Source of the DNA: Pseudomonadota bacterium
GTDB lineage: Bacteria; UBA10199; 2-02-FULL-44-16; JBDRGF01
Direction of reading: 5' to 3'
Length of the DNA stretch: 64,000 bases
Assembly (NCBI GenBank): GCA_043818055.1
Contig: JBDRGF010000075.1
Location: forward strand, 10,078 to 74,077
Shown here piece by piece: positions 862-21,185 of the stretch; within the stretch, counting starts at the first letter, position 1; every line of letters begins with the position of its first letter. The position numbers were made by a program, and so were the translations under genes. The notes under the pieces are model-generated. The model was not told where the DNA came from. It saw only the letters and a program-made list of their open reading frames with translations, and did no database searches.

Positions 862-922
862 ATAGAGATTTTCGAAGCTCGAGCAAAAACAAATTAACCA
901 ATAACAAAGAAAGGAGAGGAAA

Positions 923-1015: not shown

Positions 1016-1044
1016 ACCAAAAACAATTTAAAAAGGAGAGAAAA

Positions 1045-1143: not shown

Positions 1144-1154
1144 TGAATTAATCG

Positions 1155-1191
1155 TGTATGGGGGAGTCAAACTTGCGACTCCCCTCATACA
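1155..1191 (+). terminator. GC-rich stem-loop after the precursor genes (attenuator or mRNA stabiliser)
   Basis: TGTATGGGGGAGTC / GACTCCCCTCATACA inverted repeat; no U-tract. Confidence 0.6.
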
Positions 1192-1202
1192 TCATATCTA
1201 CT

Positions 1203-4969: not shown

Positions 4970-4974
4970 TGTAA

Positions 4975-6948: not shown

Positions 6949-9900
6949 AAAGGATATATACAGAAAGATTCTACATTCTTTCGGTTGCTGTCATCATCAT
7001 TCTGGCGGGTATCTATTACTCCCTAAGAATCCCCATAGAGTTATATCCCAACGCCACTCAGACGAAAATAACAGTCCAAACTCATTATAAAAGTCTATCT
7101 CCTTTCGCCTTTAAAGATCGTTATGGAGATTTGATAGAAAAAGAATTGAATGGAGAAGGCGAATTTGAAGAGGTAGATTGTAAATATCAATACGAATATG
7201 CAATTTGCAGGGGAAAGTTGCCGTTCGGTTCAGATGATCATGTAATTTTGGAAAGGGTAAAAAACAAGCTTGAACCAATTTTTTTGTCATTTCCCGCTGA
7301 ATGGAAAGAGGCAGAGGTAAACTTTGGCGATTCCAACAAGGGAGTTCTTATAATAGCATTATACTCAAAAAATATACCTCTGAAAAAGGTCTATGATGAG
7401 ATATCGCCATCGATCAATTCGTTCCTTTCGACTCATCCCGATGTCAGTGTCGGTGAAGTTTCAAATCTTTTTGAAAAAAAGATTTCAATAAGCATAAAAC
7501 CAAATGTTGAAAATAAAATCACCAAAGAAATGATCTTTAATCAACTTAGTTCTTCAAACAATGATATTAAAACCATTGGAAACATTTCCATTGAAGGAAA
7601 TATTCTTTCAATAGAAGCAAGTTCAAAATTGATAGAAAGCCTTGATGATCTCGAAAATTTCAAGCTTTTGACCAAACAAAATGAGATACTAAAGCTGAAA
7701 GATATCGCCGACGTAAAAATCATTCCAGTCGAACCTAATGAATTGTTTAAAGGAAATAATCAAAATTCACTCATAGTGTGGGTTGCTCCTCAGGCAAAGG
7801 CTAACCTGGTTAATTTTAGCGATTCCATCGAATCCAAAGTCAAAGCAGAGATTAAACGTTTCAACGGCGAAGTTACTGCTCAAACGCTTTTGAATCCGGC
7901 ATCTTTTATCAGGAACGCGGTTAAAGACATTTTGTATTCATTGATTATCAGCGTGATACTCTCTGGAATTGTCGTCTTCTTGTTTTTGGGATCCTTGAAA
8001 TATTCCACAGTTATAAATCTAGTCATGCCCTTGTCGTTATTTGGCACTATTTTATTCATGTATATCTTAGGTATAGAAGTGAACCTCATTTCAATGGGGG
8101 CAATGGCCATTGCAATAGGCATGGTTGTCGATGCATCTATAGTGGTAATAGAAAATATTTTTAGGCACCTGCAAAATACGCATCCGAAGGATTATTCCGA
8201 GAAACTTGGAATCTATGTCAAAGCTGTATCAGAAGTTAAAGGTGCACTTTTTTCGTCAACGATAACGACCATATGTGTTTTCGTGCCACTGCACTATGCC
8301 TCTCCTCTTGTCAGCGCCATCTTGGGAGATGTTGCGACGGTGATGACGCTCAGTCTTTTTCTTTCCATGATAATGGCCATCTTTTTTGTTCCTTCAATCC
8401 TTTTGTGGATAAATCCAGATATCACGCAGATGGAAAATTTAAAGCACAAGTCCAATTTTCTAAATAGATGTTTTACAAATATTCAAAAATACTACTCAGA
8501 GGCAGTTAAATGCTTTATCACAAATAAAGTCATCAATGTCCCGATTATAATAACATTGTTAATCCTCTTTTTACTATCTTTATATTTGGCTGTTTACAAG
8601 ATTGACCACGAACTTATAGCAACACCGACATCAGATATAATTGTTTTTCATAGGGGTAATTCAAAAGACGTTGACAGCATTGCTACGCAGGAAAAGGATT
8701 TTCACGATACTGAGCGGGAGGTGTTTAAGCTAACATCTGACTATGTTGATTTTACGCTTACCGTCTTGCGCAAGGATTTAGCGATGATGTTGTTGCACAT
8801 CAAAAATGAAAAATACAAAGAAACATTGAAACAACTTCTCATAAAAAAATATAAGAGCTCAGAAAAATATGAATTCAAGGTAGTCGATTGGGTTCCAACG
8901 CAATTTGAAATACCAGACCCACCACAGATGAAGGTGTTGATCGGCGGTGCAAGCCCAGCTGAAAGCAAATTGATTCAGGCTGAGGTGGAAAAATTCATTT
9001 TAGCAAACAGCAAAACGGTAAGGTCTTATTCCATTCCGACAAGCCTAACTTCGGATGAGATAATCGTTGATATAGACGTTGAAAAACTGGGTTATCAAAA
9101 CAGAATTCACGGAACATCTTATTCAAAAAAACAAATCCTTGATATCTTGAATTTTCACGCGAAAGAAAAATATTTAAGGCACATGAAGTTTGATGGAGCA
9201 AAAACAGCGGTATTTCTTGAATCGGACTATCCCAAATTAAAGAGAGAAAAGATTTCAAGCTTTAGCATACCGTTTGGGAACGGATCGCTAACGCTGGATA
9301 AAATCGCAGACATAAAATTAGTCAAATCAGATAGTGAGATTCACAGCTACAATGGTGGTATGCAATATGAAGTAGATGCCTTTTTTTCGGACAAGGGCTT
9401 CACATATTTCGATGAATTTTCAACAACATTAATTCATAAATTTGGTAAAGAGAAAATATCAACACATTATCCTTATGGACTGATAAACGATACAATAAAC
9501 AAACTCTTTTGGGCATTGGCTGTTTCCTGTTTGCTCGTATTCCTTGTGGTTTTTTTACAATACAGGAACATCTATTACACCTTAATAATATTGATGGCAA
9601 TTCCTACTAGCGTGATTGGAGCTCTCATTTCATTATATATATTCAAATCAACTCTTGGCATGAACGCGCTTTTGGGTCTCATTTTGCTTTCAGGCATAAG
9701 TGTCAACAGCACAATCATCATCATAGATTTTTACGATAAAATAGGCTCTGACGACATCGCTGACGGAATTGTTCAAACGATGAACTTGAGATTAAAGCCA
9801 ATTTGCATGACTGCCTTTACCACTGTCATAGCAATGGTACCCATCGCTGTAAAATTATTCAGCGGTTCAGAGGCGCTGCAGCCGCTGGGAATAACGATAA

Positions 9901-9998
9901 GTTGCGGATTATTTGTTTCAACACTATTGATACTCTTTATCGTTCCCTGGCTACTCTATTGTTTGCCGAAGAAGAGAGTTGGGAAATCACAGTTATGA
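6945..9998 (+). CDS. RND efflux permease (AcrB/CusA family)
   Basis: 1017 aa, GMVVDASIVVIENI, RLKPICMTAFTT, two periplasmic domains and TM blocks. Confidence 0.9.
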   Translation: MKRIYTERFYILSVAVIIILAGIYYSLRIPIELYPNATQTKITVQTHYKSLSPFAFKDRYGDLIEKELNGEGEFEEVDCKYQYEYAICRGKLPFGSDDHVILERVKNKLEPIFLSFPAEWKEAEVNFGDSNKGVLIIALYSKNIPLKKVYDEISPSINSFLSTHPDVSVGEVSNLFEKKISISIKPNVENKITKEMIFNQLSSSNNDIKTIGNISIEGNILSIEASSKLIESLDDLENFKLLTKQNEILKLKDIADVKIIPVEPNELFKGNNQNSLIVWVAPQAKANLVNFSDSIESKVKAEIKRFNGEVTAQTLLNPASFIRNAVKDILYSLIISVILSGIVVFLFLGSLKYSTVINLVMPLSLFGTILFMYILGIEVNLISMGAMAIAIGMVVDASIVVIENIFRHLQNTHPKDYSEKLGIYVKAVSEVKGALFSSTITTICVFVPLHYASPLVSAILGDVATVMTLSLFLSMIMAIFFVPSILLWINPDITQMENLKHKSNFLNRCFTNIQKYYSEAVKCFITNKVINVPIIITLLILFLLSLYLAVYKIDHELIATPTSDIIVFHRGNSKDVDSIATQEKDFHDTEREVFKLTSDYVDFTLTVLRKDLAMMLLHIKNEKYKETLKQLLIKKYKSSEKYEFKVVDWVPTQFEIPDPPQMKVLIGGASPAESKLIQAEVEKFILANSKTVRSYSIPTSLTSDEIIVDIDVEKLGYQNRIHGTSYSKKQILDILNFHAKEKYLRHMKFDGAKTAVFLESDYPKLKREKISSFSIPFGNGSLTLDKIADIKLVKSDSEIHSYNGGMQYEVDAFFSDKGFTYFDEFSTTLIHKFGKEKISTHYPYGLINDTINKLFWALAVSCLLVFLVVFLQYRNIYYTLIILMAIPTSVIGALISLYIFKSTLGMNALLGLILLSGISVNSTIIIIDFYDKIGSDDIADGIVQTMNLRLKPICMTAFTTVIAMVPIAVKLFSGSEALQPLGITISCGLFVSTLLILFIVPWLLYCLPKKRVGKSQL

Positions 9999-11233
9999 AA
10001 ATGTTAGGCGCATTAAAATTGAACAGAAATTTTTGGCTGCTCATAACAGGCCAGTTCACATCGAATATCGGCAGCACAATTTCAGAGCTGGGAATATCTT
10101 GGCTCGTCCTCAAGGAGTACTCGATCACAGAGTTTACCATATTTTCCGGAATATGCTTGCTGCCAAGGGTTATTCTGACTCCTCTGTTAGCCCCCCTCTT
10201 TGAAAGGGTGAATAAGAAGTTGCTGATGATCTTGTCTGATATCGTAAAAGGCATCTGTTTGTTTACAATGTATCTGCTCTTTCTCACGAAGGGTCTCAGA
10301 TACGAGTATATCGTTTCCTTGATGTTTGTTCACGGACTTGTCGGCGTTTTGTTCAGCATTGCGGTAGAACCTCTGTATTACGACATATTATCGTTGGACG
10401 AATATCCAAAGGGGACATCGCTCAGAGAATTATTTGGCCGCATGGCGCCTCTCATCGGACCTTCAGCGACTGCCATAATAATGGCAATATCCGGAAACAT
10501 CGGTCTTTTGCTTCTTATAGATTCAATTACTTTTTTTGTCTCAGCCCTTTGTATCGTTTTTATCCGCTTGCATATGAAAACAGACTTTGAAAAAACGCCC
10601 AAGACAACAGGGTTTAGTTCGTATGCTAAAAATCTGTTTCAGGGGTTGGCGTATGTCAGCAAAAACAAAAATCTGTTGATGCTCTTTACGTCGTTGATAG
10701 CGATTGGGTCTATGTTGGGGGTTTTGGCTTCAATAATGCCGATATACATACGGGATCATCTCTCTTCGGGAGTTGTTGGGTTGAGTATTTTTCAGTTGAT
10801 AGGTAATGCAGGCGCTATAATCGTAGCTATCGGATTGACGATTTGGCAGTACAAAAGCTCACATTCGAGTATATATTCCTTTGGCGTTGGCATCATTGGC
10901 ATTGTCGTCATGGGGCTGGTCGTCACTTCAAATTTCTATGCAGCGACATTCATATACTTTTTGCTGCAGGTGACGATCACCATCGCAAGCTATGCGGCAA
11001 AAATCCTTTTACGGGAAAATATCGAAGATGACTACAAAACCAGGGCATATTCGTTGATGTCCATGGAGCAGCTGTTGCAACCGATAACCATCTCTCTGTC
11101 AGGGCTCGCAATAAAAGCAATCGGGATTGATAGCATCGTGATGATCATAGGTATTACTATAATGATAATAGGGCTTGTTTTGTTGGTGATAAATTTTAAA
11201 ACGAGTCTTGTTTTTTCCAGAATTTTGGACTGA
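9995..11233 (+). CDS. MFS transporter (macrolide-efflux/DHA3-like)
   Basis: NRNFWLLITGQFTSNIG start, ~12 TM; ATGA overlap with the RND stop. Confidence 0.85.
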   Translation: MKMLGALKLNRNFWLLITGQFTSNIGSTISELGISWLVLKEYSITEFTIFSGICLLPRVILTPLLAPLFERVNKKLLMILSDIVKGICLFTMYLLFLTKGLRYEYIVSLMFVHGLVGVLFSIAVEPLYYDILSLDEYPKGTSLRELFGRMAPLIGPSATAIIMAISGNIGLLLLIDSITFFVSALCIVFIRLHMKTDFEKTPKTTGFSSYAKNLFQGLAYVSKNKNLLMLFTSLIAIGSMLGVLASIMPIYIRDHLSSGVVGLSIFQLIGNAGAIIVAIGLTIWQYKSSHSSIYSFGVGIIGIVVMGLVVTSNFYAATFIYFLLQVTITIASYAAKILLRENIEDDYKTRAYSLMSMEQLLQPITISLSGLAIKAIGIDSIVMIIGITIMIIGLVLLVINFKTSLVFSRILD

Positions 11234-11249
11234 AATCCAGGATTCTGGA
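11216..11249 (+). promoter_or_regulatory. Paired 14-bp palindromes (putative bEBP enhancer/UAS), operon 2
   Basis: TCCAGAATTTTGGA (11216-11229) and TCCAGGATTCTGGA (11236-11249), 20-bp period. Confidence 0.75.
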
Positions 11250-11336
11250 CAGAAAATTAGGATTTTATCCGGCTAAATTGACTGTGTAGTTGTGTAACCA
11301 TATAAAATATAACGTTTTGTGTTTTTTCCTCCACTT

Positions 11337-11352
11337 TGGCACATGGATTGCT
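11337..11352 (+). promoter_or_regulatory. Sigma54 -24/-12 promoter, RiPP operon 2
   Basis: TGGCAC-ATGGA-TTGCT; flanks ACTTTGGCAC....TTGCTATA identical to promoter 1. Confidence 0.85.
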
Positions 11353-11510
11353 ATATATTTCAAAAAGTTAAGCAACAAGTTGTAATAGAGTGCGATAATG
11401 GTGGGGTAATATAAAGTTACGTAATGAAGTTTTTATATTCAAATTGAAATTGAAATTTATTTTCTAATGAAACATGACTTACCGTAATGATAATCAATGG
11501 TAAGAGGCAT

Positions 11511-12731
11511 ATGGTAAATAATAAAAACCTTTTACAGATATCCTACTTTATTAATCAATTAGGTACTTATACAAGCTATCTTGCCATCATTGCAATAGCT
11601 CGGGAACACAATAATTCTATAAATTCTATTGCTATGGTATTGGGTGCTTCAGCGGCAGGGACAATGGTTGGGTGGCTTTTGACAATGAAATATCTTAAAA
11701 ATGTGCACGCAAAACTTCTCCTTTCGTCATCGTTGATATTGTCAGGTTTGATGATGGTATCAATTTTATGTCTGGTTAATTGGTGGCTAGTTGTTGCTGC
11801 TTTTTTTGTGTTAGGAATGTGTACCAATACCTACATGTCATCATTCTATACTTTAATTCCCAGGATGATCAAAAAAACAGATGTGCCTAATATTAATCAG
11901 AACATTCAGATATTGTCTCAATTAGCCATAGTTATAGGTGCGATTTTGGGCGGCATTTTGTTAGATCGGTTTGGGTTTAGGCTTCCGCTATTTGTTGATA
12001 TTATTTCTTATTTATTAGTTGGGGTTGTTTATATGTGTCTTTCCCATAATAGATTTGTAATTTTATCAGCAGAGAAAGCGAATGATAATACGAAAGACCA
12101 AGAAGTGGTACGTCCAAAATGTCCATTTCAAAGGACATTGTTATTTTCTCCATTGGTGTTGGCTTTTCTGGTGGCTTTTGCTGCAGGTGCATATAATGTG
12201 ATTGAAATTCCATTTTTCACCGATATTTTAGGGTTGCCCTATCGCTACATTGGATTTTATTTTTCAATTTCGGTATTGGGAATTCCAGTTTTTCATGCTT
12301 TGGTACGTAAAAAGATGTTGCAAATGGAGTCGCTGCGATCCCTGTTTATCGGTATTGCATTAGGTGGTTTGGTTTATTTAGTATGGGGTATGCAGAGCAG
12401 CTTATGGATAACTGGTCTTTTGTTAATTTTATTCAGCCTCTTTCAATTAGTTATATTCACTTCAGTGAATAATTATCTACATGCCCATGTATTGGAAGAT
12501 AATAAACTTCAAACGGTTTTTTCAACTTTGCAATTTGGGAGACGTGTGGCAGCTCTGCTGGGTAAATTAGCGATTCCCTTTATTGTAGGTTTTGCAGGAG
12601 AAAAATTTTCTTTTTCAGTGCTAGGTGTTATTATGATAATTGGATTGATTGTTGTTTTGATAACCAAAAGAGTGATAGAAGGAAGTATGAGTATTGTTGG
12701 AGATTTACAACAAAATGCCGCCGAATATTAA
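11511..12731 (+). CDS. MFS transporter
   Basis: ~12 hydrophobic segments, GGILLDRFG motif; start after AAGAGG RBS (alternative 11487). Confidence 0.8.
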   Translation: MVNNKNLLQISYFINQLGTYTSYLAIIAIAREHNNSINSIAMVLGASAAGTMVGWLLTMKYLKNVHAKLLLSSSLILSGLMMVSILCLVNWWLVVAAFFVLGMCTNTYMSSFYTLIPRMIKKTDVPNINQNIQILSQLAIVIGAILGGILLDRFGFRLPLFVDIISYLLVGVVYMCLSHNRFVILSAEKANDNTKDQEVVRPKCPFQRTLLFSPLVLAFLVAFAAGAYNVIEIPFFTDILGLPYRYIGFYFSISVLGIPVFHALVRKKMLQMESLRSLFIGIALGGLVYLVWGMQSSLWITGLLLILFSLFQLVIFTSVNNYLHAHVLEDNKLQTVFSTLQFGRRVAALLGKLAIPFIVGFAGEKFSFSVLGVIMIIGLIVVLITKRVIEGSMSIVGDLQQNAAEY

Positions 12732-12750
12732 ATTAGAGAAAGGAGGAGGT

Positions 12751-12831
12751 ATGAAGCAAATGGATTTGCTTGGATTGGACAACATTGAAATTCAGCAAGA
12801 AGGATGTTGCCCTCAGGGAATTGACGGATAA
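12751..12831 (+). CDS. RiPP precursor peptide A3, 26 aa: MKQMDLLGLDNIEIQQEGCCPQGIDG
   Basis: Hand translated; strong AGGAGGAGGT RBS; GLDNIEIQQEG matches the A1/A2 leader; followed by hairpin, methyltransferase and rSAM. Confidence 0.82.
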   Translation: MKQMDLLGLDNIEIQQEGCCPQGIDG

Positions 12832-12864
12832 TACATCAAGAATATTCATATTATTATGAATCTA

Positions 12865-12902
12865 TTATCCGGGGGATCTCATTGCTTTAGTCCCCCGGAT
12901 AA
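12865..12902 (+). terminator. Stem-loop after precursor A3
   Basis: Perfect 12-bp stem TTATCCGGGGGA / TCCCCCGGATAA; no U-tract. Confidence 0.6.
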
Positions 12903-12925
12903 CATGATTCAAAAGGAGTGATGCG

Positions 12926-13936
12926 ATGAATCCTGTAAGTCAGATGAGAAGTTGGATTAATTCTATGCACATTGCTAAGGCTGTTAATATTGGTGTTGAG
13001 GTGGGATTATTCGGTGTGATTGCTGAAATAAAATGTCCAACAACAGTTCAAGAACTAGCCAGGCAAGCTTGCTGTGATCAGGGATATGTAGAATCCTGGA
13101 TACATGTTATGCAAGCGGCAGGAATTATTGATGTTGATCAAAATGGTCATCTGTCGTTTGTTAGTGACTGGAAGGAAGCCCTTACAGATCGAGATAGTGA
13201 TAAATATGTGCCGCCGATGATGGAATGTCATTTCGCTATTGCAGATACCTATCCGAGATTTGCAAAATTTTTTAGAAATGGAAATTGCATGCATTCAAAT
13301 GAATTCAGTGAACCACTGCTGGTCGGTATTGCTGCGGATGCAGTGCGATTTGCAAACTATTTTTTGCATGTAGCTGTGGATAAGATTCCAGATTTGAAGC
13401 TAAAACTGGAAGAAGGAATAGATGTTTTAGACGTGGGTTGTGGTGGCGGGCAATTTCTTTCAAAAATAGCAACACAATTTCCAAAGTCGCGCTATGTAGG
13501 TATCGACCCGTTAGATAAAGTTATTGATATGGCTAGGGAGGAGGCCAAACATTATAAAGTAGAGAGTAGAGTAGATTTTATTGTCGGTTGCGGTTCCGAA
13601 ATCAAAAAGGAATGTGCTGATTTAATAATTCTTAATGAAGTACCTCACGAAATGGATGCTAAAGTAAGACAACCGGTGCTGGATGCTTGTTGTAAAGCAT
13701 TGAAAAAGGATGGTCTTTTGTTTCTGGTTGATATTTTGGCCCCCGAAAATGCCGGGGATTATGTACGGCCTAATTTCTTATTATCATCACTAGTTCAGTT
13801 TTTTGAAAAACCATGGGGTTCAAAATTGTTGACATACTCAGAATTGAAAATCTTAATTAGAAATGCAGGTTTTTCGGATTTGACACACTTGGTGTCAGCA
13901 GATGATGTAGTTGTCGCATATACAAAACCCATATAG
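12926..13936 (+). CDS. Class I SAM-dependent methyltransferase with N-terminal winged-helix domain
   Basis: VLDVGCGGG motif I, GID, ALKKDG; N-terminal wHTH/dimerisation-like region. Confidence 0.85.
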   Translation: MNPVSQMRSWINSMHIAKAVNIGVEVGLFGVIAEIKCPTTVQELARQACCDQGYVESWIHVMQAAGIIDVDQNGHLSFVSDWKEALTDRDSDKYVPPMMECHFAIADTYPRFAKFFRNGNCMHSNEFSEPLLVGIAADAVRFANYFLHVAVDKIPDLKLKLEEGIDVLDVGCGGGQFLSKIATQFPKSRYVGIDPLDKVIDMAREEAKHYKVESRVDFIVGCGSEIKKECADLIILNEVPHEMDAKVRQPVLDACCKALKKDGLLFLVDILAPENAGDYVRPNFLLSSLVQFFEKPWGSKLLTYSELKILIRNAGFSDLTHLVSADDVVVAYTKPI

Positions 13937-13944
13937 ATATATTA

Positions 13945-15177
13945 ATGAAAAAAAATTATCATAATATTTTAGTTGATGGAAAAAAAATTCGTTTTTATCC
14001 CGATGAAATGTTATTTTATAAAGGCAGTTCATTTCCGAAGGATGTGGATAAAGATAGAAATGTGAGGCCATCCGTTTGTAAATCGGTAAAGATCGCAAAC
14101 AGCAGGAAACTACAACTGGCGTTGACAATCACTAAGAGCTGCAACATGAAATGTACATATTGCTATGATAAGAAAAATATGAATATTTCTTCTAATTCGA
14201 AAAATATGCATTTTAGTACACTATGCGATGCAGTGAATAAGTTTTGTAATAGCAGGATTGGTAATTACAATATACATTTCATAGGTGGAGAGCCGCTTTT
14301 ATGTCTGGATTTAATCAAACAAACTGTAGATTATTGCAATAAGAAGGCTGCAATTGATAGCTCGGTATTTACATATAGTATTTCGACTAACGGTACAATA
14401 ATTGACAAAGCCATAGCAAAGTATTTTTCCGAAAATAAAATTAAAATAAGATTAACCTTTGATGGTGTAGAAGAATCTCAGAATGTCAATCGACCGATGC
14501 GCAATCGGGAGCAGAGCTTTTCTCATGTGGTACGATCGTTATCAAATCTAAGAAATGCAAGTTGTGATTTTAGTGTTATATCTGTACTTCATCCCAATTT
14601 TCTTCATAAAATGCTTAAAGCTTTTGAAAATATAATTCAATACAATCCAAATGCGATAAAATTTGTTCCTCTAATAAATATAGATGCGCTTGGATGTAAG
14701 TATGTCAGTGATCATAGTGTCATGTTTGCAGAATCTCTTCGGAATATCGCTAATCAATTGATCAGTAGAAAAGATGAAAAAACAATTATGAAAATTAAGA
14801 ATATAAGCGTGTATTTGCCTTATATTCATAATCGTATAGCGAACATCAAGGGGTGTATTGCAGTTAATAAACAATCATATGCAGTGAATGTAGATGGTTC
14901 TGTGTATCCATGCTCAACCTTTGTTGGTATAGATACTCATCGTTTGGGGATGATAAATGATTATGAACTCAATCCTAATTCCATAAAATGTGAATCAATA
15001 ACGACGAGATGTTTATCCTGCTGGGCACGAACATTATGTCCTGGAGTATGTGCTTATACTGCCGATAATAATTCAGCATGCTCATCAGCAATGAATTGTG
15101 AGTTTATAAAAGGAGAGATTACTGTTGCTTTGGAAGTATATAGCAAGTTGTATCCTCATAAAATTAGAAGGGAGTGA
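13945..15177 (+). CDS. Radical SAM/SPASM protein (anSME/ranthipeptide-maturase-like)
   Basis: CNMKCTYC, FIGGEPLL, STNGT, SPASM C..VNVDGSVYPC and CLSCWARTLCPGVC..C. Confidence 0.88.
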   Translation: MKKNYHNILVDGKKIRFYPDEMLFYKGSSFPKDVDKDRNVRPSVCKSVKIANSRKLQLALTITKSCNMKCTYCYDKKNMNISSNSKNMHFSTLCDAVNKFCNSRIGNYNIHFIGGEPLLCLDLIKQTVDYCNKKAAIDSSVFTYSISTNGTIIDKAIAKYFSENKIKIRLTFDGVEESQNVNRPMRNREQSFSHVVRSLSNLRNASCDFSVISVLHPNFLHKMLKAFENIIQYNPNAIKFVPLINIDALGCKYVSDHSVMFAESLRNIANQLISRKDEKTIMKIKNISVYLPYIHNRIANIKGCIAVNKQSYAVNVDGSVYPCSTFVGIDTHRLGMINDYELNPNSIKCESITTRCLSCWARTLCPGVCAYTADNNSACSSAMNCEFIKGEITVALEVYSKLYPHKIRRE

Positions 15178-15186
15178 CGAATTGCC

Positions 15187-16371
15187 ATGAATAACCTAAT
15201 AAAAAAAGCATTTCAACTTTGCTGTTTTTTAATTATCATACTAATACCATTTTATATTCAAGCGGATCAAAATATTACAATAGCGCTGGTGAATAATTTT
15301 TCGGATTTTAGATCTCCATGTGGTGATCCTAAAGGAGAAAACTTTTTGAATGCTTTGAATTTAGCATTGGAAGATTTTTTAAAAGATCATAAAAAATATT
15401 CAGATCAAATAATACTTAGAAAATATGATTATGGTAATTCACCACTTAATACGGAACGTATTACATTAGAAGCTGTTCGCTCCGATGCAGTAGCATTAAT
15501 TGGATATCCATGCTCTAGTTTTGCTCTTCTTGCTGCTCCAATAGCTGAGGCGCACAATGTTGCTATGATTACGCCATCGGCTACAATTGATTCATTAACC
15601 GAGAGTCGTGAATATGTATATCGCGCTTCATTTAGGGATGAAGATCAAGCTAAAGTTATGGCGGAATTTCTGGCAAATGATCTGGATAAGAAAAAGGCTG
15701 TAGTTATTGTTAATCAGAATTACCCATATTGCACTAATTTATCAGAGCAATTCCAGCATTATTTTAAAAAATATGGAGGAAAGATTGTAAAAGTGTTTAA
15801 CACGCTTTCGAGCCAAAAAAGCTATAATAAAGAAGTAAATGAAATGAATCACTTATCATATGATGTAGTTTTTATTCCTAATCATGAAATGGAGAGCGCT
15901 ACTATGGTTAAAGAAATATATAATTTGAGTATGGAAACCACTGTTGCTGGTGGAGACGGATGGGGGAATTTGTATGGGTATATTTTTCCTGCTATAGTTG
16001 GAAATAAAAAAATTGATGCGTATGCAATTGCTCATTGGAATCGTGATTCTGTTGACACTAGTTCAAAAGAATTTCAGAAAAGGTATTATAATCGTTTTGG
16101 ATTTTATCCAAACGATAATTCAGCATTAGCTTATGATGCTATGAGTCTGCTTTTACATGCAATATCTAAGGCGAAAAAAATAAATAGGAAAGAAATCAAC
16201 GCAGAGCTCAAATCAATCCGGTCTCATTTCGGTGTAACTGGGAGATTCTCTTATAATCGAGGTAATGGAACGCCTTCAAAAAATGTTTATATAGTAAAAT
16301 ATCCTCAACCCAATTTGTCTCATGAAGGTGATCGTAGATTTGAGCATTACAAGAGTGTTATCGTAAAATAA
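15187..16371 (+). CDS. Periplasmic binding protein (LivJ/branched-chain amino acid-binding family)
   Basis: Signal peptide; ALIGYPCSS, ITPSAT, GGDGW, ALAYDA, GVTG motifs; no ABC permease or ATPase nearby. Confidence 0.85.
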   Translation: MNNLIKKAFQLCCFLIIILIPFYIQADQNITIALVNNFSDFRSPCGDPKGENFLNALNLALEDFLKDHKKYSDQIILRKYDYGNSPLNTERITLEAVRSDAVALIGYPCSSFALLAAPIAEAHNVAMITPSATIDSLTESREYVYRASFRDEDQAKVMAEFLANDLDKKKAVVIVNQNYPYCTNLSEQFQHYFKKYGGKIVKVFNTLSSQKSYNKEVNEMNHLSYDVVFIPNHEMESATMVKEIYNLSMETTVAGGDGWGNLYGYIFPAIVGNKKIDAYAIAHWNRDSVDTSSKEFQKRYYNRFGFYPNDNSALAYDAMSLLLHAISKAKKINRKEINAELKSIRSHFGVTGRFSYNRGNGTPSKNVYIVKYPQPNLSHEGDRRFEHYKSVIVK

Positions 16372-16372
16372 T

Positions 16373-18154
16373 ATGCAGCTTAAATTGAGTCATAAAATAA
16401 ACTTCTATTTTATTTTAATCATGCTTCTGGTGACGCTATGTTCTGTTGTATTTATTTTTTACATGGCAAAAGTTGAACGCAGTAAGCAAATCGACATGGC
16501 GGTTTCTAAAATGAAAAATATAGCTGCTATTGAATCAGAAGATATTATTGCTCAAATTCTTTTTCATTCATACTCGTCACTCGATCTAATAAGTAAAAAA
16601 ATTCTAGAAGAAAACAAAAATATATTTGTTGATATTCGACTTAATGATTTTGTTACAGGAAATGAATTGAAATATAAATATTGTATTCCTGATAATAATG
16701 GAGTGTGCTACAACAGGGATGATGATGTGCTTCAATTCGTATATTCCTTGAATTATGGAGGTAAGGATTTAGGAAGCCTCATCATGGCACAACAGATGGG
16801 TTCTTTCACTATGCTGATTAAGCCATCAGTATCAGTAATTGTATTATTTGCATCCTTGGTAACAATAGCGATGCTCGGAATGTTTATGTTCTTTATCAGA
16901 AAAAATATCAGTCAGCCAATCAATATATGTATTCGATCATTTTCAGAAATTAAATCTGGGAAGAGAAAAAATATTCCAAAAATGAATACTCGCGATATGA
17001 ATATACTAGTTGAAAATATTAATTCACTTATGGAAGATTTAGGAATATTTCAAAAAATTGCTGAAAGAAATACACATTTAGCCGCCATAGGACAAATATC
17101 ATCCCACGTCGCACACGATATGCGATCGCCGCTGTCTGTCATACAGGGATATCTGCGGGGAAATCAAAAAAACATGAAACTTCTCGAAGCAGCAAAGGGA
17201 AGCGCAAATAAACTGAATAACATGGCCGATGAACTATTGGATTATGCCAAGGCCTCGAAGATTGAGCCGGTTGCAACATCGTTAAAAAGCCTCGTTGAAA
17301 CCACCGTCAGCAAAGAGGTTAAAAATATCGCCGATGAAAAGGGTGTAAAGCTTATTTATGATGTGAGGGATGATGTTGTTGCTAAGATAGATCATTACCG
17401 AATGGAACGTGTCCTGACCAACCTCATCACGAACGCCGTTCAGGCGATTGATGCGGAATCAGGTGAGGTAAAAGTTTCTGTTAAATCAGACAACGAAAAT
17501 CTCAAAATAACAGTTACAGATAATGGCAGGGGAATAAGCAAAGAAGATCAGAAAAAGATTTTCGATAGCTTTTTCACAAAGGGAAAGATGAGAGGGACAG
17601 GCCTTGGGCTCTCATATTGCAAAAACGTCATAGAGGCACATGGGGGCGCTATTGCAGTAGAGAGTGAAGTTGGAAGAGGAACAGAGTTTTCGATTAATAT
17701 TCCATCTTGTATTACAACACCACATGCCACATGCTACATACCACATGCTGTCCCTAGCCATCAGACATCAGCGGTCAGCGGTCAGCCGACAAAAGGCGAG
17801 TTGGACTCGGATAACGACATCCTCGTCGTCGATGATGATGTGGGAATAATTTTAATATGGTGTGGCCTGATAGAGAAGAAAACAGGAAAACCGCCCATAA
17901 CCGCAAAGAGCCCTGAAGAGATGATGAAAGCCAAAATCGATTACAGCAGGGTATCAAAGGCGATTGTTGACTATCAATATGAGGGAAGTAAGCTCACCGG
18001 CCTCGATGTCGTACAATTTTTGAAAGAGAAGGGCGTGCAGGTGATCCACATGTGCACGGGGATGTATCACGATGAAGAATTGCAATCGCAGGCGAGAAAG
18101 TTAGGCGTTGCTTCGATCATACCTAAGCCTATTAGCGCCGATACGAATATTTGA
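16373..18154 (+). CDS. Membrane hybrid sensor histidine kinase (TM-periplasmic-TM, HisKA, HATPase, REC-like)
   Basis: AHDMRSPL H-box, NLITNA, DNGRG, GTGLGL, C-terminal ILVVDDD receiver. Confidence 0.9.
   Translation: MQLKLSHKINFYFILIMLLVTLCSVVFIFYMAKVERSKQIDMAVSKMKNIAAIESEDIIAQILFHSYSSLDLISKKILEENKNIFVDIRLNDFVTGNELKYKYCIPDNNGVCYNRDDDVLQFVYSLNYGGKDLGSLIMAQQMGSFTMLIKPSVSVIVLFASLVTIAMLGMFMFFIRKNISQPINICIRSFSEIKSGKRKNIPKMNTRDMNILVENINSLMEDLGIFQKIAERNTHLAAIGQISSHVAHDMRSPLSVIQGYLRGNQKNMKLLEAAKGSANKLNNMADELLDYAKASKIEPVATSLKSLVETTVSKEVKNIADEKGVKLIYDVRDDVVAKIDHYRMERVLTNLITNAVQAIDAESGEVKVSVKSDNENLKITVTDNGRGISKEDQKKIFDSFFTKGKMRGTGLGLSYCKNVIEAHGGAIAVESEVGRGTEFSINIPSCITTPHATCYIPHAVPSHQTSAVSGQPTKGELDSDNDILVVDDDVGIILIWCGLIEKKTGKPPITAKSPEEMMKAKIDYSRVSKAIVDYQYEGSKLTGLDVVQFLKEKGVQVIHMCTGMYHDEELQSQARKLGVASIIPKPISADTNI
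17714..17790 (+). repeat. Heptamer tandem repeats in the kinase interdomain linker
   Basis: CACATGC-type then CAGCGGT-type 7-mers, in frame (TPHATCYIPHAVPSHQTSAVSGQP). Confidence 0.65.
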
Positions 18155-18177
18155 ATTCGCTGAGATGGGAGGCAAAG

Positions 18178-19584
18178 ATGAACAAAGATTATACGATACT
18201 CTGTGTTGACGATGATGAGAATTTTCTTGTTCAGCTGGAGAGTATATTTGCGGATTACACAGTTTTCAAAGCGACATGCATGGATGATGCCCTGTCGATC
18301 ATAGACCGGAACGATATCAATACAGTTCTATTGGACATCAGCCTCAACGGCGAGGATGGTCTGGATGGGTTGAACCTGATTAAAAAAAGAAATTCGTTCA
18401 TCGATGTCGTGATGGTGACAGGCCATAGGGACACCGAATATATAGTGAAGGCGATTCAAAGCGGCGCGAGCGATTATGTGTTGAAGCCTGTGGATCAGGG
18501 AGCGTTGCTCGCGTGCGTGGAAAAATCGAAACAATCCAAAAAAGAAAAGGAAAAATATAATGCTCTGCTCTGTGAGTTGAATTCAGCGGATATCGCTTCG
18601 AGGATTGTCGGCAGGAGCGCGGAGCTCTCAAAAATTCTGAATATAGCAAAGAAGGTGAAGGGACATCACAGGGCAAACATCCTGATCGAAGGAGAGAGCG
18701 GCACGGGAAAGGAACTCCTGGCGCGCTACATCCACAGGCTTGAGGAGAATACAAGGCGACCGTTCATTGCGATCAATTGTGCTGCTATTCCGGACAATCT
18801 TATAGAATCAGAATTGTTTGGCCACGAAAAAGGAGCTTTTACCGGTGCGATTGGCAAGAAGATAGGGAAATTCGTTCTTGCTGACAAAGGTGATATCTTC
18901 CTTGATGAAATCAGTTCACTAAAACCTGATCTGCAGGCAAAATTATTGCGCGTGTTTCAGGAAAAGGAATTTTGTCCCCTTGGCGGCAACGATCCAGTGA
19001 AATCGGATTTCAGGGTGATCGCCGCGACCAATGAAAATCTGGAGGAGCTGGTGAATTCAGAAAAGTTCAGGCTCGATCTCTATCATCGCATGAAGATCGT
19101 CAATCTCTACATGCCTCCACTTCGCGACCGGAAGGATGATATAGAAGAGCTTGCTCAACATTTCCTCAGAAAATATTCAGATGGGAAAAGGGGTTTGAAA
19201 ATTGCAGATAAAGCAATCGCAATATTAAAGGAATATTCCTGGCCCGGAAATGTGAGAGAACTGGAAAATATAATACACCGGGCAATCGTCCTCGCTGAGG
19301 GCTATATGCTTTCGGAGAAGGATTTTTCGCATTTGCTAACCCCTTCCTCAGCCTGCATCAATGAAGGGCAGTCCACGCCCTTTATACAATTGTTTTCGGA
19401 GATATCGCCCAAACTCTCCGGCAATGTGATGCCGCTTAAGGATTATGTCATGAAGGCCGAGACCGAATATTTAAAAGAGGTGCTCGATCTCAAGGCCGGC
19501 AACAAAGACGAGGCAGCTGTTTCTCTCAAGATGAGCCGTTCGAGTTTTTATTCAAAATTGAAACAATGCGGTTTTTTAACATGA
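18178..19584 (+). CDS. NtrC-family sigma54-dependent response regulator (REC-AAA+-HTH)
   Basis: LCVDDD receiver, GESGTGKE, GAFTGA, FLDEI, WPGNVREL, C-terminal Fis-like HTH. Confidence 0.95.
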   Translation: MNKDYTILCVDDDENFLVQLESIFADYTVFKATCMDDALSIIDRNDINTVLLDISLNGEDGLDGLNLIKKRNSFIDVVMVTGHRDTEYIVKAIQSGASDYVLKPVDQGALLACVEKSKQSKKEKEKYNALLCELNSADIASRIVGRSAELSKILNIAKKVKGHHRANILIEGESGTGKELLARYIHRLEENTRRPFIAINCAAIPDNLIESELFGHEKGAFTGAIGKKIGKFVLADKGDIFLDEISSLKPDLQAKLLRVFQEKEFCPLGGNDPVKSDFRVIAATNENLEELVNSEKFRLDLYHRMKIVNLYMPPLRDRKDDIEELAQHFLRKYSDGKRGLKIADKAIAILKEYSWPGNVRELENIIHRAIVLAEGYMLSEKDFSHLLTPSSACINEGQSTPFIQLFSEISPKLSGNVMPLKDYVMKAETEYLKEVLDLKAGNKDEAAVSLKMSRSSFYSKLKQCGFLT

Positions 19585-19682
19585 ATTGATTATCTTTTAG
19601 TTTATCGCCACTTTTCGTTGCATTCCCTTTTACAGTTAGCTAAATGGAATTGATCACAATTTCAAAACATAGGAGGGCATCG

Positions 19683-20417
19683 ATGACTAACACCTTTGAT
19701 CATCTCTTTCTGATGGGGCGGCCTGCTGCTGGAAAATCCGAATTCATAGATTTCATGAAAAAAGTTACAGACGAGGAGAGGGCGAAGAAATTTCATATCG
19801 GCCATTTTACCGAGGTCGATGATTTCGTCTGGCTTTGGGAGAAGTTCATGGAGGATCACCTCTGGGAGGAGGTCGGTTGTGAGAGGCTCTATTCATTCAA
19901 TGAGGATGACAACCCGGGACTTAAGCCCGACAAGGGAAAGCTCTTCGATATGATGATAGCCAAGATCGATCATATAGTTCGTGATAATTTTTTATCGAAG
20001 GCCGATTTTTATTCTCAAAATACCCTGATAATCGAGTTCGCGAGGGGGATGGAAACGGGATATAAACATTCATTCGATCTTATCAAAAGTGATCTTTGGG
20101 ATAAAGCCGCGATTTTGTATGTTGAGGTCGATGGTGCGGAATCATGGAAGAGGAACGTCGCAAGGTACGAGGAGAAGCTCAAACATTCGATATTAGCCCA
20201 TATGGTTCCGAAAAAGACCTTCGATGCCTTTTATTCGCATGATGACTGGCACGATCTTACTGAGAATAAGAGGGAGGGTTATTTAAACCTGAAGGGAATT
20301 GAAGTCCCATTTGTTACGATGAACAACTGTCCGGAGTCGACAGATCCGGCTGTGTTAAGCCCCCGTTACGGTCAAGCGCTCGATAACCTCATGGAATTGA
20401 AGGAGAAACTAAAATAA
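19683..20417 (+). CDS. P-loop NTPase/kinase-like protein, paralog 1
   Basis: GRPAAGKS Walker A at the N-terminus; AGGAGG RBS. Confidence 0.7.
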   Translation: MTNTFDHLFLMGRPAAGKSEFIDFMKKVTDEERAKKFHIGHFTEVDDFVWLWEKFMEDHLWEEVGCERLYSFNEDDNPGLKPDKGKLFDMMIAKIDHIVRDNFLSKADFYSQNTLIIEFARGMETGYKHSFDLIKSDLWDKAAILYVEVDGAESWKRNVARYEEKLKHSILAHMVPKKTFDAFYSHDDWHDLTENKREGYLNLKGIEVPFVTMNNCPESTDPAVLSPRYGQALDNLMELKEKLK

Positions 20418-20440
20418 TCAGCTGAAGGGAGTCTTTCGGG

Positions 20441-21163
20441 ATGAAATATTTTAAAAATCTTTTTGTTTTAGGCCGTCCTGCCTGTGGAAAATCAGAATTT
20501 CTGGATTTTATGCGAAATAAGATCTCGGATGATGAGAGGCAGGATATCTATCACATAGGAAAAATGAAGGTGATGGATGATTTCGTGTGGCTCTGGGAAA
20601 AATTCGAAGACGACGATATCTGGGAAAAGGTCACGGGGAAAAGATTTCATTCCAACAGAGATGGACATCTATATAATGCGAGGAGCGCGATTCTATATAA
20701 TTTTTTGACCGAGCGTTTGAGCGAAGAGGTAAAAAAGAATTTAAAAGATCAGGAGTTTTATAATTCAGGGACGTTGTTGATCGAATTCTCAAGGGGAGGA
20801 GAATGTTCTTATAAGGATGCCCTCAATCGCTTTGACCCCGAGGTGCTTAAAAGTTCTGCGATATTGTATATGGAGGTGGATGGGGCCGAGTCGTGGAGGA
20901 GAAATGAGGCGCGTTATCAGGAAAAGTTAAAACACTCGATTCTGGCCCACAAAGTTCCGAGAGAGACCTTCGATACATTTTATTCCTTTGATGACTGGGA
21001 TGCGCTCACTGGAAAAAAACGCGATGGTGAGCTTGATCTTCAGGGGGTCAGAGTTCCATTTGTTACGATGAATAACACCCCCGAATCAACTGATCCAGGT
21101 GTTTTAGCGCCAAGATATGGCGATGCCCTGAACCGCCTGATGGATGTTTTCAACAAGAGATAA
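20441..21163 (+). CDS. P-loop NTPase/kinase-like protein, paralog 2
   Basis: GRPACGKS; shares DDFVWLW, IEFxRG and RYxEKLKHS with its neighbours. Confidence 0.7.
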   Translation: MKYFKNLFVLGRPACGKSEFLDFMRNKISDDERQDIYHIGKMKVMDDFVWLWEKFEDDDIWEKVTGKRFHSNRDGHLYNARSAILYNFLTERLSEEVKKNLKDQEFYNSGTLLIEFSRGGECSYKDALNRFDPEVLKSSAILYMEVDGAESWRRNEARYQEKLKHSILAHKVPRETFDTFYSFDDWDALTGKKRDGELDLQGVRVPFVTMNNTPESTDPGVLAPRYGDALNRLMDVFNKR

Positions 21164-21185
21164 TCAACGAAAGGAAATTTCAACC

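Follow-up and report, generated by a model that had tools for sequence, protein, structure and literature searches.

The locus described here lies in a 64,000-nucleotide stretch of DNA (the whole of which we call the window) and encodes a 26-residue peptide, A3, with two adjacent cysteines, together with a methyltransferase (MT) and a radical SAM/SPASM enzyme (rSAM), raising the question of what is made from so small a peptide and which genes take part. In an initial annotation, these three genes were seen as a second cassette whose precursor shares its leader with two other peptides of the window, A1 and A2, and might thereby recruit the TldD-like protease of the A1/A2 operon (operon 1). From that model, A3 as a precursor, the thioether suggested by family likeness and the lack of a protease stand, whereas the extent of the cassette was incomplete, and conservation of the leader and leader-based TldD recruitment are not supported. 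Our main reading, to which we assign a probability of roughly 0.4, is that a cassette comprising MT, Cys peptide, rSAM, a periplasmic binding protein (SBP) and a histidine kinase (HK) both produces and detects a small modified peptide of its own, and is more than an add-on to operon 1.

Organization of the operon

The genes are arranged in the order MFS transporter, A3, MT, rSAM, SBP, hybrid HK and sigma-54-dependent response regulator (Table 1), with short or overlapping junctions of 19 (from the end of the MFS gene to A3), 94, 8, 9, 1 and -4 nt, the last being the overlap of the regulator gene with the kinase gene. They form one sigma-54 operon running from the MFS gene through the regulator, so that a cassette of A3, MT and rSAM only is too small; the earlier statement that no protease is encoded in it holds. 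A second exact match to the sigma-54 promoter pattern is found at 846-860, upstream of A1, and an alignment of the two promoter regions shows conservation of both the inverted repeat and the -24/-12 box.

Table 1. Features of the A3 operon and its control region (positions in the window)
Feature	Position	Strand	Description
Inverted repeat, upstream activator-type, of the second sigma-54 promoter	11211..11254	+	Near-copy of the 735-768 element upstream of A1
Sigma-54 type promoter, operon head	11337..11351	+	TGGCAC-N5-TTGC, exact pattern match
MFS transporter	11487..12731	+	Pfam MFS_1, 97.8 bits; first operon gene; candidate peptide exporter
A3 ORF	12751..12831	+	26-aa precursor-like; leader DLLGLD and NIEIQQEG, core CCPQGIDG
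Hairpin between A3 and MT	12865..12902	+	13-bp stem, 12-nt loop
MT	12926..13936	+	Class I SAM methyltransferase, O-methyltransferase-like, Rv2258c-like; Pfam Methyltransf_31/25/12/2, HTH_65
rSAM	13945..15177	+	Radical SAM/SPASM peptide maturase, unnamed family; nearest PapB, nif11-type, QhpD, CteB, anSME
SBP	15187..16371	+	Periplasmic binding protein, Peripla_BP_6; Pfam 127.7 bits; N-terminal signal-like sequence
Hybrid HK	16373..18154	+	HisKA, HATPase_c, receiver
Sigma-54-dependent response regulator	18151..19584	+	Receiver, AAA+ sigma-54 activator, Fis-type HTH

The hairpin noticed earlier after A3 is real, the 106-nt stretch that contains it folding at -34.1 kcal/mol (z-score of -3.7 against shuffles). 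It carries no T-run and is not called a terminator, and Rfam gave no match in the region around A3 (11200-13100); possibly, it is a transcript-stabilising or attenuating element that would raise the peptide:enzyme ratio. A groundwater metatranscriptome library contains contigs with full identity to stretches of both operons, 12986-13252 and 13312-13572 among them; as library contigs, these leave transcription unproven, and the seven of 30 operon bins with no such contig are uninformative. A DNA contig from a separate study spans 12580-13068 with zero differences.

The A3 peptide and its leader

Our translation of A3 is identical to the earlier one, and the readings of A1 (923-1015) and A2 (1045-1143) likewise agree. 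The A3 ATG is directly preceded on its 5' side by GGAGGAGG, and its ribosome-binding site is strong; alternative in-frame starts are an ATG at 12715, giving a 38-aa form, and a TTG at 12694. The core is numbered C19-C20-P-Q-G-I-D25-G26. A3 matched no family in NCBIfam or Pfam, and it falls outside the SCIFF peptides, with two Cys in 26 residues against about six in about 45 and no match to a SCIFF precursor model. As had been proposed, it could plausibly serve the adjacent anSME/CteB-like SPASM enzyme as precursor, and it is probably a true rSAM substrate.

The motif IE[IV]xxEG, by which A3 had been linked to A1 and A2, occurs more often in them than chance would allow: the 5,854,798 six-frame residues of the whole genome contain six occurrences, half of them being those in A1, A2 and A3; of the remaining three, two are interrupted by an internal stop codon. 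The last position of the motif is residue 17 or 18 in A1, A2 and A3 alike. The accompanying expectation that the leader similarity would extend to homologues is contradicted by the sole A1/A2 homologue found (in genome G014), which has Y-E-I-V-C-G-P where IEIxxEG would stand, and by three related cassette peptides, described below, which also lack it.

A conserved cassette in related genomes

An MT-family profile matched five of 93 genomes of the phylum, including the window's own, and in four of these five (G000, G008, G014 contig 49 and G086) the MT gene lies beside those for an rSAM, a Peripla_BP_6 protein and a hybrid kinase. The block of MT, small Cys peptide, rSAM, SBP and HK thereby recurs in three other genomes of the phylum (loci L195, L196 and L197), and in these and the window the five genes are adjacent, co-oriented and homologous over their full length. 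Identities to the window proteins are 33-38% for MT, 24-25% for rSAM and 21-31% for HK, the L195 kinase reaching 31% over its whole length from residue 3; for SBP they are 31-33%, a range that also includes the SBP of a further locus, L185.

All three related cassettes have a small ORF between MT and rSAM, so the window differs in the position of its peptide gene, A3 lying before MT and the related genes after it; no A3-like ORF was found upstream of MT in L195, L196 or L197, and none in another MT-bearing locus, L184. Judging by the ORF maps of the loci at the extent retrieved, the MFS gene is absent from L195-L197, and L195 showed no response regulator gene adjoining the operon. Common to the four cassette peptides are the motif D-x-L-x-(L/I)-(D/R) in the leader and a Gly-Cys pair at a distance of 4-7 residues from the C-terminus; D, L, G and C do not vary in this small sample of four aligned sequences, and A3 and the L195 peptide both contain Q-x-D-x-L-G-L-D. 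The ORF of the L196 peptide requires a frame change within an A-run. The related peptides are longer than A3 and have one core Cys, and the stop codon of the L197 gene overlaps the rSAM start; they also contain an uncharged stretch of 17-20 residues, which A3 lacks. After the conserved Cys, the four peptides have C, T, S or A, and the related cores have no conserved acidic acceptor, Asp being present in one of three. Since the Gly-Cys follows the uncharged stretch, the related peptides were considered as lipoproteins; the usual lipobox constrains positions -3 and -2, none of the three fits there, and the idea was rejected.

The radical SAM/SPASM enzyme

The radical SAM/SPASM gene reported in the initial annotation is full, its CxxxCxxC motif (C66, C70, C73) and seven SPASM cysteines (C304, C323, C356, C359, C365, C369, C385) being invariant in an alignment of seven sequences, while the Pfam SPASM model gave no match on the window rSAM. 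Its best NCBIfam score is to PapB (NF047865), at 178.6 bits against a cut-off of 340. The PapB model scored highest for all seven rSAMs scanned (142.6-174.9 bits for the six relatives), always below the cut-off, followed in all seven by the nif11-type maturase and in six by QhpD; for the window rSAM the third place is taken by the anaerobic sulfatase maturase (TIGR03942; 118.4 bits against a cut-off of 349.45, with no sulfatase gene among the ORFs of positions 1-26000) and the fourth by QhpD (114.8 bits). The enzyme lies below every NCBIfam cut-off. In a profile search against solved structures, 5wgg (1.3e-43) and 4k37 (8.8e-33) were recovered, and a Foldseek search with the modelled fold gave TM values of 0.68-0.73 for anSME (4k36) and 0.72-0.77 for 5why/5wgg; anSME was the top Foldseek match, and the label anSME-like given earlier is fair. 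The N-terminal extension of about 55 residues is modelled as three short strands, without helices.

The family is rare, with four close relatives (five clusters found) among 1.84 billion protein representatives. These closest relatives, P0012-P0015, are four singletons from Logan or JGI assemblies. One of them is on a contig of the same size (7817) as a close MT homologue (49% identity), a weak form of linkage; the contigs of 33158, 19115 and 6223 have no same-sized partner among the 46 MT-family proteins listed. Direct search of genome_contigs yielded no rSAM-related loci, alignment scans of genome_contigs and metagenome_contigs gave only distant rSAMs with at most 34% identity over parts, tblastn of P0012-P0015 against 170 loci found none of them, and a degenerate family DNA pattern (two conserved motifs 63 nt apart) had zero matches in genome_contigs.

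By family likeness, a thioether is the most likely chemistry, as had been suggested earlier, and on this analysis we would give it an even chance. Ranthipeptides as a class carry a thioether between the Cys sulfur and a non-alpha carbon of the acceptor. PapB accepts Cys-Xn-Asp with n = 0-6 (PMC9413430); a C-terminal Gly can likewise be joined to Cys by PapB in vitro, for which a free carboxylate is required, whereas C-terminal L-residues other than Gly are left unprocessed (PMC12373016). A3 resembles the PapB substrate in that its donor Cys lies N-terminal to a carboxylate residue, and C20-X4-D25, C19-X5-D25 and the C-terminal Gly are all of a kind that PapB accepts in vitro; the window rSAM, for its part, has the radical SAM core and full SPASM cysteine set of PapB. 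The differences are that the A3 core is a single 8-residue stretch, in contrast to the six repeated C-X3-D motifs of freyrasin, and that a methyltransferase is added in the window cassette, together with linkage to a binding protein and a kinase.

A different radical reaction on Cys, such as anSME-like oxidation to an aldehyde or a C-C or C-H modification with no thioether formed, appears distinctly unlikely; the MT may then cap a thiol or other group. anSME oxidises Cys and forms no crosslink, Foldseek places it first or level with 5why, and its model reaches 118.4 bits on the window rSAM; C, T, S or A after the conserved Cys resembles the position that follows the target residue in the sulfatase motif, and no acceptor residue is common to the related cores. 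Against this, the profile ranking is consistent, PapB coming first and the nif11-type maturase second throughout, while third place belongs to QhpD in six of the seven enzymes scanned and to anSME in the window rSAM; A3 conforms to the PapB rules for Cys-Xn-Asp and C-terminal Gly, and the remainder of the sulfatase motif is missing. anSME (4k36-4k39) acts on Cys in a short peptide motif, as the window rSAM would, and differs in that the candidate substrate here is a stand-alone 26-aa peptide with no sulfatase nearby.

Structure prediction of A3 with the rSAM, which had been put forward as a check, favours the pairing. The complex, modelled with the 38-aa form of A3 (from ATG 12715), three 4Fe-4S clusters and SAM, scored 0.78, compared with 0.43 for the best of three controls; the mark for this score is reached by 116 of 157 solved complexes and two of 215 mismatched pairs, and across runs contact agreement was at least 80% and partner pLDDT at least 64. 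The DLLGLD stretch of A3 is predicted to sit on the cassette's own rSAM, with the tightest modelled contacts formed by Leu7 and Leu9 to residues 278-296 and 402-403, a family-specific stretch. Because peptide complexes of related enzymes have already been solved, this pass may reflect the likeness to them.

The model also bears on whether A3 is instead a regulatory upstream ORF whose tandem Cys codons and hairpin tune MT and rSAM expression, with no product. A strong hairpin does follow the tandem Cys codons; however, it lacks a T-run and showed no alternative pairing, the homologous cassettes encode longer peptides with one core Cys (in L197 running into the rSAM start), and the predicted rSAM-A3 complex passes its controls, all of which make this explanation very improbable.

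The methyltransferase

The gene after the hairpin does encode a class I methyltransferase, as annotated, with an N-terminal domain of Rv2258c-like winged-HTH type. Its best solved relative is 5f8c, and the nearest solved relatives are small-molecule O-methyltransferases. In the family alignment, identities to the window MT are 39-49%, and 45 further MT-family proteins were found at E<=1e-20. It does not belong to the ApyS-type RiPP methyltransferases (NF050150), its match to that model being confined to the SAM-binding part (38.7 bits against a cut-off of 400).

Members of the MT family are also found at three loci that have no rSAM. In L184, two tandem MT genes are followed by an MFS gene; in L185, an SBP gene comes directly after MT, and the best rSAM match of that genome reaches no more than 88 bits; the L186 MT gene is followed by a CN-hydrolase-like ORF. 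Within the order of the L185 genome, the MT family is present in one of 151 genomes, namely the L185 genome itself. An ORF with a Cys-rich tail upstream of the L185 MT was discounted for want of a convincing start or ribosome-binding site, and the L184 MFS was rejected as a specific relative of the window MFS genes (E values of 0.077 and 0.042).

The occurrence of the family without an rSAM renders peptide methylation less certain than initially assumed, and the case for A3 being methylated is evenly poised. The alternative that MT belongs with the sensor genes and makes or modifies a small-molecule ligand, peptide and rSAM being a separate add-on, has a precedent in Ralstonia, where a methyltransferase-made quorum signal is known. 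It draws on the L185 arrangement, with an SBP directly after MT in a genome without the family rSAM, on the other contexts in L184 and L186, and on the small-molecule substrates of the nearest solved relatives. We regard it as quite unlikely, given that MT is directly beside peptide and rSAM in four of the five phylum genomes with the MT family, that the window MT and rSAM genes are 8 nt apart, and that the closest MT homologue (49%) is on a contig of the same size as that of an rSAM family member.

Sensor genes and the relation to operon 1

SBP matches a single NCBIfam model, that of a branched-chain amino-acid binding protein, reaching 61.6 bits where the cut-off is 477. The sigma-54 regulator of the operon probably activates both sigma-54 promoters, and gene linkage suggests, tentatively, that the peptide product is the ligand of the cassette's own sensor.

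Operon 1 contains a TldD-like gene (3548-4969) with an HExxxH motif, the only PF19289 match in the genome; no TldE partner or second TldD family member was found in this genome.

Another way to relate the two operons is to regard A3 as the second product of one antibiotic-like pathway, in which the IEIxxEG leader hands A3 to the TldD-like protease and exporters of operon 1, MT and rSAM tailor it, and SBP, kinase and regulator serve only for regulation, the cue coming from outside or being the end product itself, the latter as is the case in lantibiotic autoinduction. IEIxxEG recurs in A1, A2 and A3 far beyond chance, both operons have the same promoter and upstream repeat, and the cassette, having no protease, could be served by the single TldD-like gene. 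Yet the cassette is present in G008 and G086, where the operon-1 rSAM (rSAM1) used as a query gave no operon-1 rSAM at E<=1e-40; IEIxxEG is absent from the G014 A1/A2 homologue and the three cassette peptides; and in the modelled complex DLLGLD docks on the cassette's own enzyme. Moreover, TldD/E recognition is described as sequence-independent (PMC10885120), so that a shared leader is not needed for recruitment, contrary to the earlier proposal. This single-pathway account is therefore somewhat unlikely.

Proposed mechanism

Under our main reading, of a cassette that makes and senses its own peptide, the rSAM would bind the DLLGLD part of the A3 leader, as modelled, and tie the thiol of Cys19 and/or Cys20 to a carbon adjoining a downstream carboxylate, namely the C-beta of Asp25 or the C-alpha of the C-terminal Gly26, giving, by likeness to PapB and QhpD, a thioether ring of 6-8 residues. 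The O-methyltransferase-like enzyme would methylate a group common to the four cassette peptides, most simply the C-terminal carboxylate. Leader cleavage would take place in the immediate area of the conserved Gly-Cys junction or exactly there, with the operon 1 TldD-like protease as a possible agent, and the peptide would be exported through the MFS protein. SBP, kinase and sigma-54 regulator, as their linkage suggests, would then sense the peptide and switch on both sigma-54 promoters with their common upstream repeat, raising the cassette itself as well as the A1/A2 operon. The product would be a small thioether-cyclised, possibly methyl-esterified peptide detected by the cassette's own sensor, and the MFS exporter in front and the sigma-54 response regulator behind would be extensions of the cassette in this genome.

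A broader and more speculative extension, which we consider improbable as a whole, is that the family makes pheromones of 5-8 residues in which an N-terminal Cys is joined by an rSAM-made thioether to the C-terminal residue, the adjoining free carboxylate is then methyl-esterified, and SBP and hybrid kinase provide the read-out. The sigma-54 regulator would here also turn on a second RiPP operon, and the uncharged stretch of the related peptides would be an export signal, replaced in the window by a short leader and an MFS exporter. Such a product would be the natural counterpart of the in-vitro C-terminal macrocyclisation by PapB and a stable analogue of thiolactone autoinducers. As the related cores have no conserved acidic acceptor and PapB takes only Gly among C-terminal L-residues, a reaction from Cys to the C-terminal residue is not backed there by the PapB data.

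Comparison with known systems and significance

The maturase of SCIFF (thermocellin) peptides in 5wgg/5why, which we take to be CteB, is the best solved profile relative of the window rSAM and is itself a peptide-binding SPASM thioether enzyme, but identity in the structural alignment is only 18-19% and the N-extension of the window rSAM is short. In a table of one review (PMC8326336), SCIFF ranthipeptides are placed under quorum sensing.

Small peptide genes combined with a sensor kinase and a regulator are found in bacteriocin three-component systems and in those for agr-type cyclic peptides. The A3 operon is like these pheromone systems in that one operon combines a peptide gene with kinase and regulator genes whose products would control a second peptide operon, and in that the presumed mature peptide has 5-8 residues with a Cys placed for a ring onto the C-terminal end. 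It is unlike them in that the ring would be a radical-made thioether rather than a thiolactone, that sensing would use a periplasmic binding protein and a sigma-54 regulator, and that the lineage is labelled Deltaproteobacteria or Myxococcales by its submitters. As in microcin B17-type TldD/E systems, a TldD-like protein of a co-regulated operon could trim the A3 leader to the modified core; here, however, the TldE partner is lacking, and sequence-independent recognition leaves the shared leader motif unexplained. A full-text literature search, covering papers not restricted to subscribers, found none describing such a cassette.

If the proposal is true, the rSAM would represent an undescribed and very rare radical SAM/SPASM maturase family with an unusually small substrate that is easily synthesised and assayed. 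Having two donor Cys and, further along, two carboxylates within 8 residues, the core would be a compact test bed for thioether-forming enzymes, which are of biotechnological interest. A RiPP-type modification would be tied directly to a periplasmic binding protein/kinase sensor in a little-studied, uncultured groundwater lineage, offering a testable case of peptide signalling outside the Firmicutes.

A conserved cassette with a small Cys peptide

A profile of the methyltransferase (MT) family, built from the family alignment (45 further family proteins at E <= 1e-20), matches 5 of 93 phylum genomes, that of the window included. In G008, G014 (contig 49) and G086 (loci L195 to L197, with L195 in G008), MT directly adjoins the radical SAM enzyme that was the best distant match to the window radical SAM/SPASM enzyme (rSAM), and ORF maps and Pfam scans give the order MT, rSAM, Peripla_BP_6 periplasmic binding protein (SBP) and hybrid histidine kinase (HK) in all three. 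Identities to the window proteins are 33-38% (MT), 24-25% (rSAM), about 31% (SBP) and 21-31% (HK), and the L195 HK aligns with the window HK from the N-terminus on. In four genomes, from three families of the phylum, SBP and HK accompany MT, the peptide and rSAM. In the fifth genome, G009, MT lies at a contig end and is followed by a CN-hydrolase-like ORF. The contigs of two relatives are identical to public records, labelled by their submitters as an uncultured Myxococcales MAG and a Deltaproteobacteria groundwater MAG.

Two other loci were also compared. L185 (6001-8024, from a Desulfobacteraceae-labelled MAG) encodes a 38%-identical MT and, 14 nt downstream, a 33%-identical SBP, within whose gene the contig ends; no rSAM lies between them, and no rSAM of the family was found in that genome. 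In L184 (the reverse complement of G014 contig 92), a short element that carries a small ORF of its own occurs twice (~1819-2055 and ~4599-4772). It seems to interrupt a second MT paralogue and an MFS gene, and so resembles a miniature mobile insert.

In each of the three related cassettes, a small ORF lies in the 180-270 nt that separate MT from rSAM. Those of L195 (57 aa) and L197 (53 aa) have a good ribosome-binding site, and the stop of the latter overlaps the rSAM start; in L196 (5050-5233, minus strand), a one-base frame change in an A-run, which could reflect misassembly or slippage, joins an ATG-led start to the conserved body, and only the unshifted 41 residues were used. These peptides share a Lys-rich start, the motif D-x-L-x-(L/I)-(D/R), 17-20 uncharged residues, Gly-Cys and a further 4-5 residues to the end. 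The window peptide A3, whose translation is the one reported in the initial annotation, precedes MT and does without the uncharged stretch. It retains the leader motif as well as Gly-Cys near the C-terminus and has Q-x-D-x-L-G-L-D in common with the L195 peptide; since D, L, G and C are also invariant across all four aligned peptides, A3 is read as a short member of the cassette peptide family. The sequence GGAGGAGG stands immediately 5' of its ATG, and the frame is open upstream, with possible alternative starts at ATG 12715 (38 aa) and TTG 12694.

Features of the two operons (window positions)
Feature	Position	Strand	Description
Inverted repeat	735-768		~85-110 bp upstream of sigma-54 site
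Sigma-54 site	846-860		exact TGGCAC-N5-TTGC, before A1
A1	923-1015		peptide ORF
A2	1045-1143		peptide ORF
Inverted repeat	11211-11254		same repeat, ~85-110 bp upstream of sigma-54 site
Sigma-54 site	11337-11351		exact TGGCAC-N5-TTGC
MFS gene	11487-12731		first gene after the 11337 promoter
A3	12751-12831	+	26-residue translation
Hairpin	12865-12902		13-bp stem, z -3.7
MT	12926-13936		class I methyltransferase, Rv2258c-like winged-HTH N-domain, O-methyltransferase-type matches
rSAM	13945-15177		radical SAM, CxxxCxxC motif
SBP	15187-16371		Peripla_BP_6 binding protein, after rSAM
HK	16373-18154		hybrid histidine kinase, after SBP
Response regulator	18151-19584		sigma-54 type, after HK

Operon organization

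From the 11337 promoter, the order is MFS, A3, hairpin, MT, rSAM, SBP, HK and sigma-54 response regulator, with gaps from MFS through the regulator of 19, 94, 8, 9, 1 and -4 nt. Given this order and the short or overlapping gaps, the A3-MT-rSAM stretch lies in the middle of a single sigma-54 operon, whose last gene encodes its own probable activator. The hairpin lacks a T-run and was neither called as a terminator nor matched by Rfam. Upstream of the G008 MT (L195, ~5090-5125) there is a near-consensus sigma-54 site that differs from TGGCAC-N5-TTGC by one mismatch, suggesting that sigma-54 control may be a family trait. Directly 3' of the regulator, 19644-21914 contains three tandem paralogues of ~240-257 aa with a P-loop-like start.

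The enzymes and their predicted chemistry

Domain matches and invariant cysteines confirm that, as initially annotated, an MT and an rSAM/SPASM enzyme follow the A3 hairpin. The closest solved relative of MT is 5f8c, followed by small-molecule O-methyltransferases. An alignment of 7 sequences shows the CxxxCxxC motif and the seven SPASM cysteines of rSAM to be invariant, and the nearest folds to its AlphaFold model (mean pLDDT 74.1) are anSME (4k36) and 5why/5wgg. Among 1.84 billion protein representatives, its only close relatives are P0012-P0015 (32-38% identical, 206-248 bits), all singletons from Logan or JGI assemblies; P0012, P0013 and P0015 align over the full length and P0014 (324 aa) over rSAM residues 107-406, and the next match falls to 142.5 bits. 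No member of this narrow family was found in the other 92 phylum genomes (best non-self match 176 bits vs 623 for self). The PapB ranthipeptide-maturase model scores highest for all seven rSAMs scanned, at 142.6-178.6 bits against a cut-off of 340, with the nif11-type maturase second in all seven and QhpD third in six; for the window rSAM, anaerobic sulfatase maturase is third and QhpD fourth. By these profile matches, the family is an unnamed relative of PapB and not a PapB member.

PapB is reported to accept Cys-Xn-Asp with n = 0-6 (PMC9413430) and, in vitro, to link Cys to a C-terminal Gly whose free carboxylate is needed, refusing other C-terminal L-residues (PMC12373016). The A3 core, with two donor Cys and two carboxylates of the accepted kind (Asp25 and C-terminal Gly26), fits these rules, so that the most economical prediction by analogy is one or two small thioether rings. 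Because Cys and the nearby C-terminus are the only features open to both enzymes in all four peptides, the O-methyltransferase-like MT would, if rSAM uses the thiol, most simply esterify the C-terminal carboxylate. Against this view, rSAM is equally close in modelled fold to anSME, an enzyme that oxidises without crosslinking, and the MT family is also found without any rSAM. The related cores, moreover, have no common acidic residue, and the C-terminal limit described for PapB points the same way.

The initial annotation had proposed structure prediction of peptide-enzyme complexes as a check. The complex was modelled from rSAM (7-row alignment), A3, three 4Fe-4S clusters and SAM; since modelling needs chains of at least 30 residues, the 38-aa reading from ATG 12715 was used. 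The model scored 0.78, against 0.43 for the best of three controls, a mark that 116 of 157 solved complexes attained, as did 2 of 215 mismatched pairs; contact agreement among runs was at least 80% and partner pLDDT at least 64. The confident contacts listed involve A3 residues 4-10 (M-D-L-L-G-L-D) and 12-26; the initial 15 residues of the longer form (12 extra plus M-K-Q of A3) contribute to none of them. The tightest join Leu7 and Leu9 to rSAM residues 278-296 and 402-403, a stretch conserved in the P0004/P0012-15 group. The part placed on rSAM is therefore the cassette-family motif and not IEIxxEG. The model supports A3 binding by rSAM, although its pass may partly reflect likeness to related enzymes whose peptide complexes are already solved.

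The motif shared with A1 and A2

A1 and A2, the precursor-like peptides heading the neighbouring operon 1, also read as originally stated. In the whole 2.93-Mb assembly (5,854,798 six-frame residues), IE[IV]xxEG occurs six times; three matches are A1, A2 and A3, and two of the other three contain an internal stop, so the motif common to A1-A3 is beyond chance. Leader likeness in homologues, set beforehand as a test, failed to appear: IEIxxEG is kept neither in the three related cassette peptides aligned with A3 nor in the sole A1/A2 homologue found (G014), which has Y-E-I-V-C-G-P at that place and adjoins an operon-1-type rSAM (35% identical) and a sigma-54-like promoter. In the sequences compared, the A1/A2-type leader likeness is consequently a feature of this genome only. 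Operon-1 proteins could use the motif as an additional recognition element, or recombination between precursor genes could have left it behind.

This G014 homologue is a 25-aa ORF in an operon 1 relative, L183 (G014 contig 8, 9023-10564, minus strand), where it and the sigma-54-like site precede the rSAM, which is 35% identical to that at window 1158-2549. As the end of this ORF matches the A1/A2 cores (aromatic-G-V-G-G-S; window 923-1143), the core seems conserved and the leader not.

Proposed leader removal, export and sensing

The cassette genes include no protease, in line with the initial annotation, which suggested that the shared leader may recruit operon 1 machinery such as TldD. In this 93.6%-complete genome, a PF19289 (PmbA/TldD-family) scan matched only the TldD-like gene of operon 1 (3548-4969), which carries an HExxxH motif, and found no TldE-like partner; the three cassette-bearing relatives each have two PF19289-family genes elsewhere in the genome. 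TldD/E is reported to trim leaders independently of sequence until modification blocks trimming (PMC10885120). By analogy, the operon-1 protein could serve A3, as proposed, but the shared motif would not be needed for it.

Within the cassette loci compared, an MFS gene occurs in the window cassette alone, and A3 is the one peptide without the uncharged stretch, from which one may speculate that a dedicated exporter took the place of a built-in export signal. No ABC transporter is present for the cassette SBP to serve. Considering this absence, the association of SBP and HK with MT, peptide and rSAM, the sigma-54 promoter and regulator at the two ends of the operon, and the recurrence of the promoter's upstream repeat before the A1/A2 operon, SBP, HK and regulator would sense the cassette's own peptide. 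Such an arrangement of promoter, sensor and regulator is the layout of peptide-pheromone circuits controlling bacteriocin operons. Against a peptide ligand, the only named relative of SBP, a weak match (61.6 bits vs a cut-off of 477), binds branched-chain amino acids. SCIFF ranthipeptides are placed under quorum sensing in a review table (PMC8326336).

Occurrence and significance

Among the four runs examined, contigs identical or nearly identical to the 700-19700 locus were found in metagenomes of groundwater and biofilm from two studies, and a 489-base contig from a study other than the one with the best match covers 12580-13068 with no difference. A third study provides a groundwater metatranscriptome library in which some contigs match parts of both operons exactly, two of them within the MT gene, with depth in 23 of 30 bins, which is compatible with transcription. 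Runs of a fourth study contained no more than a small share of the search words. Overall, the initial observation is confirmed, and its first reading is supported only in part. With its chemistry and signalling role as predictions, the cassette is an unnamed, very rare rSAM/SPASM Cys-peptide maturation system that combines a minimal substrate with a built-in, conserved sensor.
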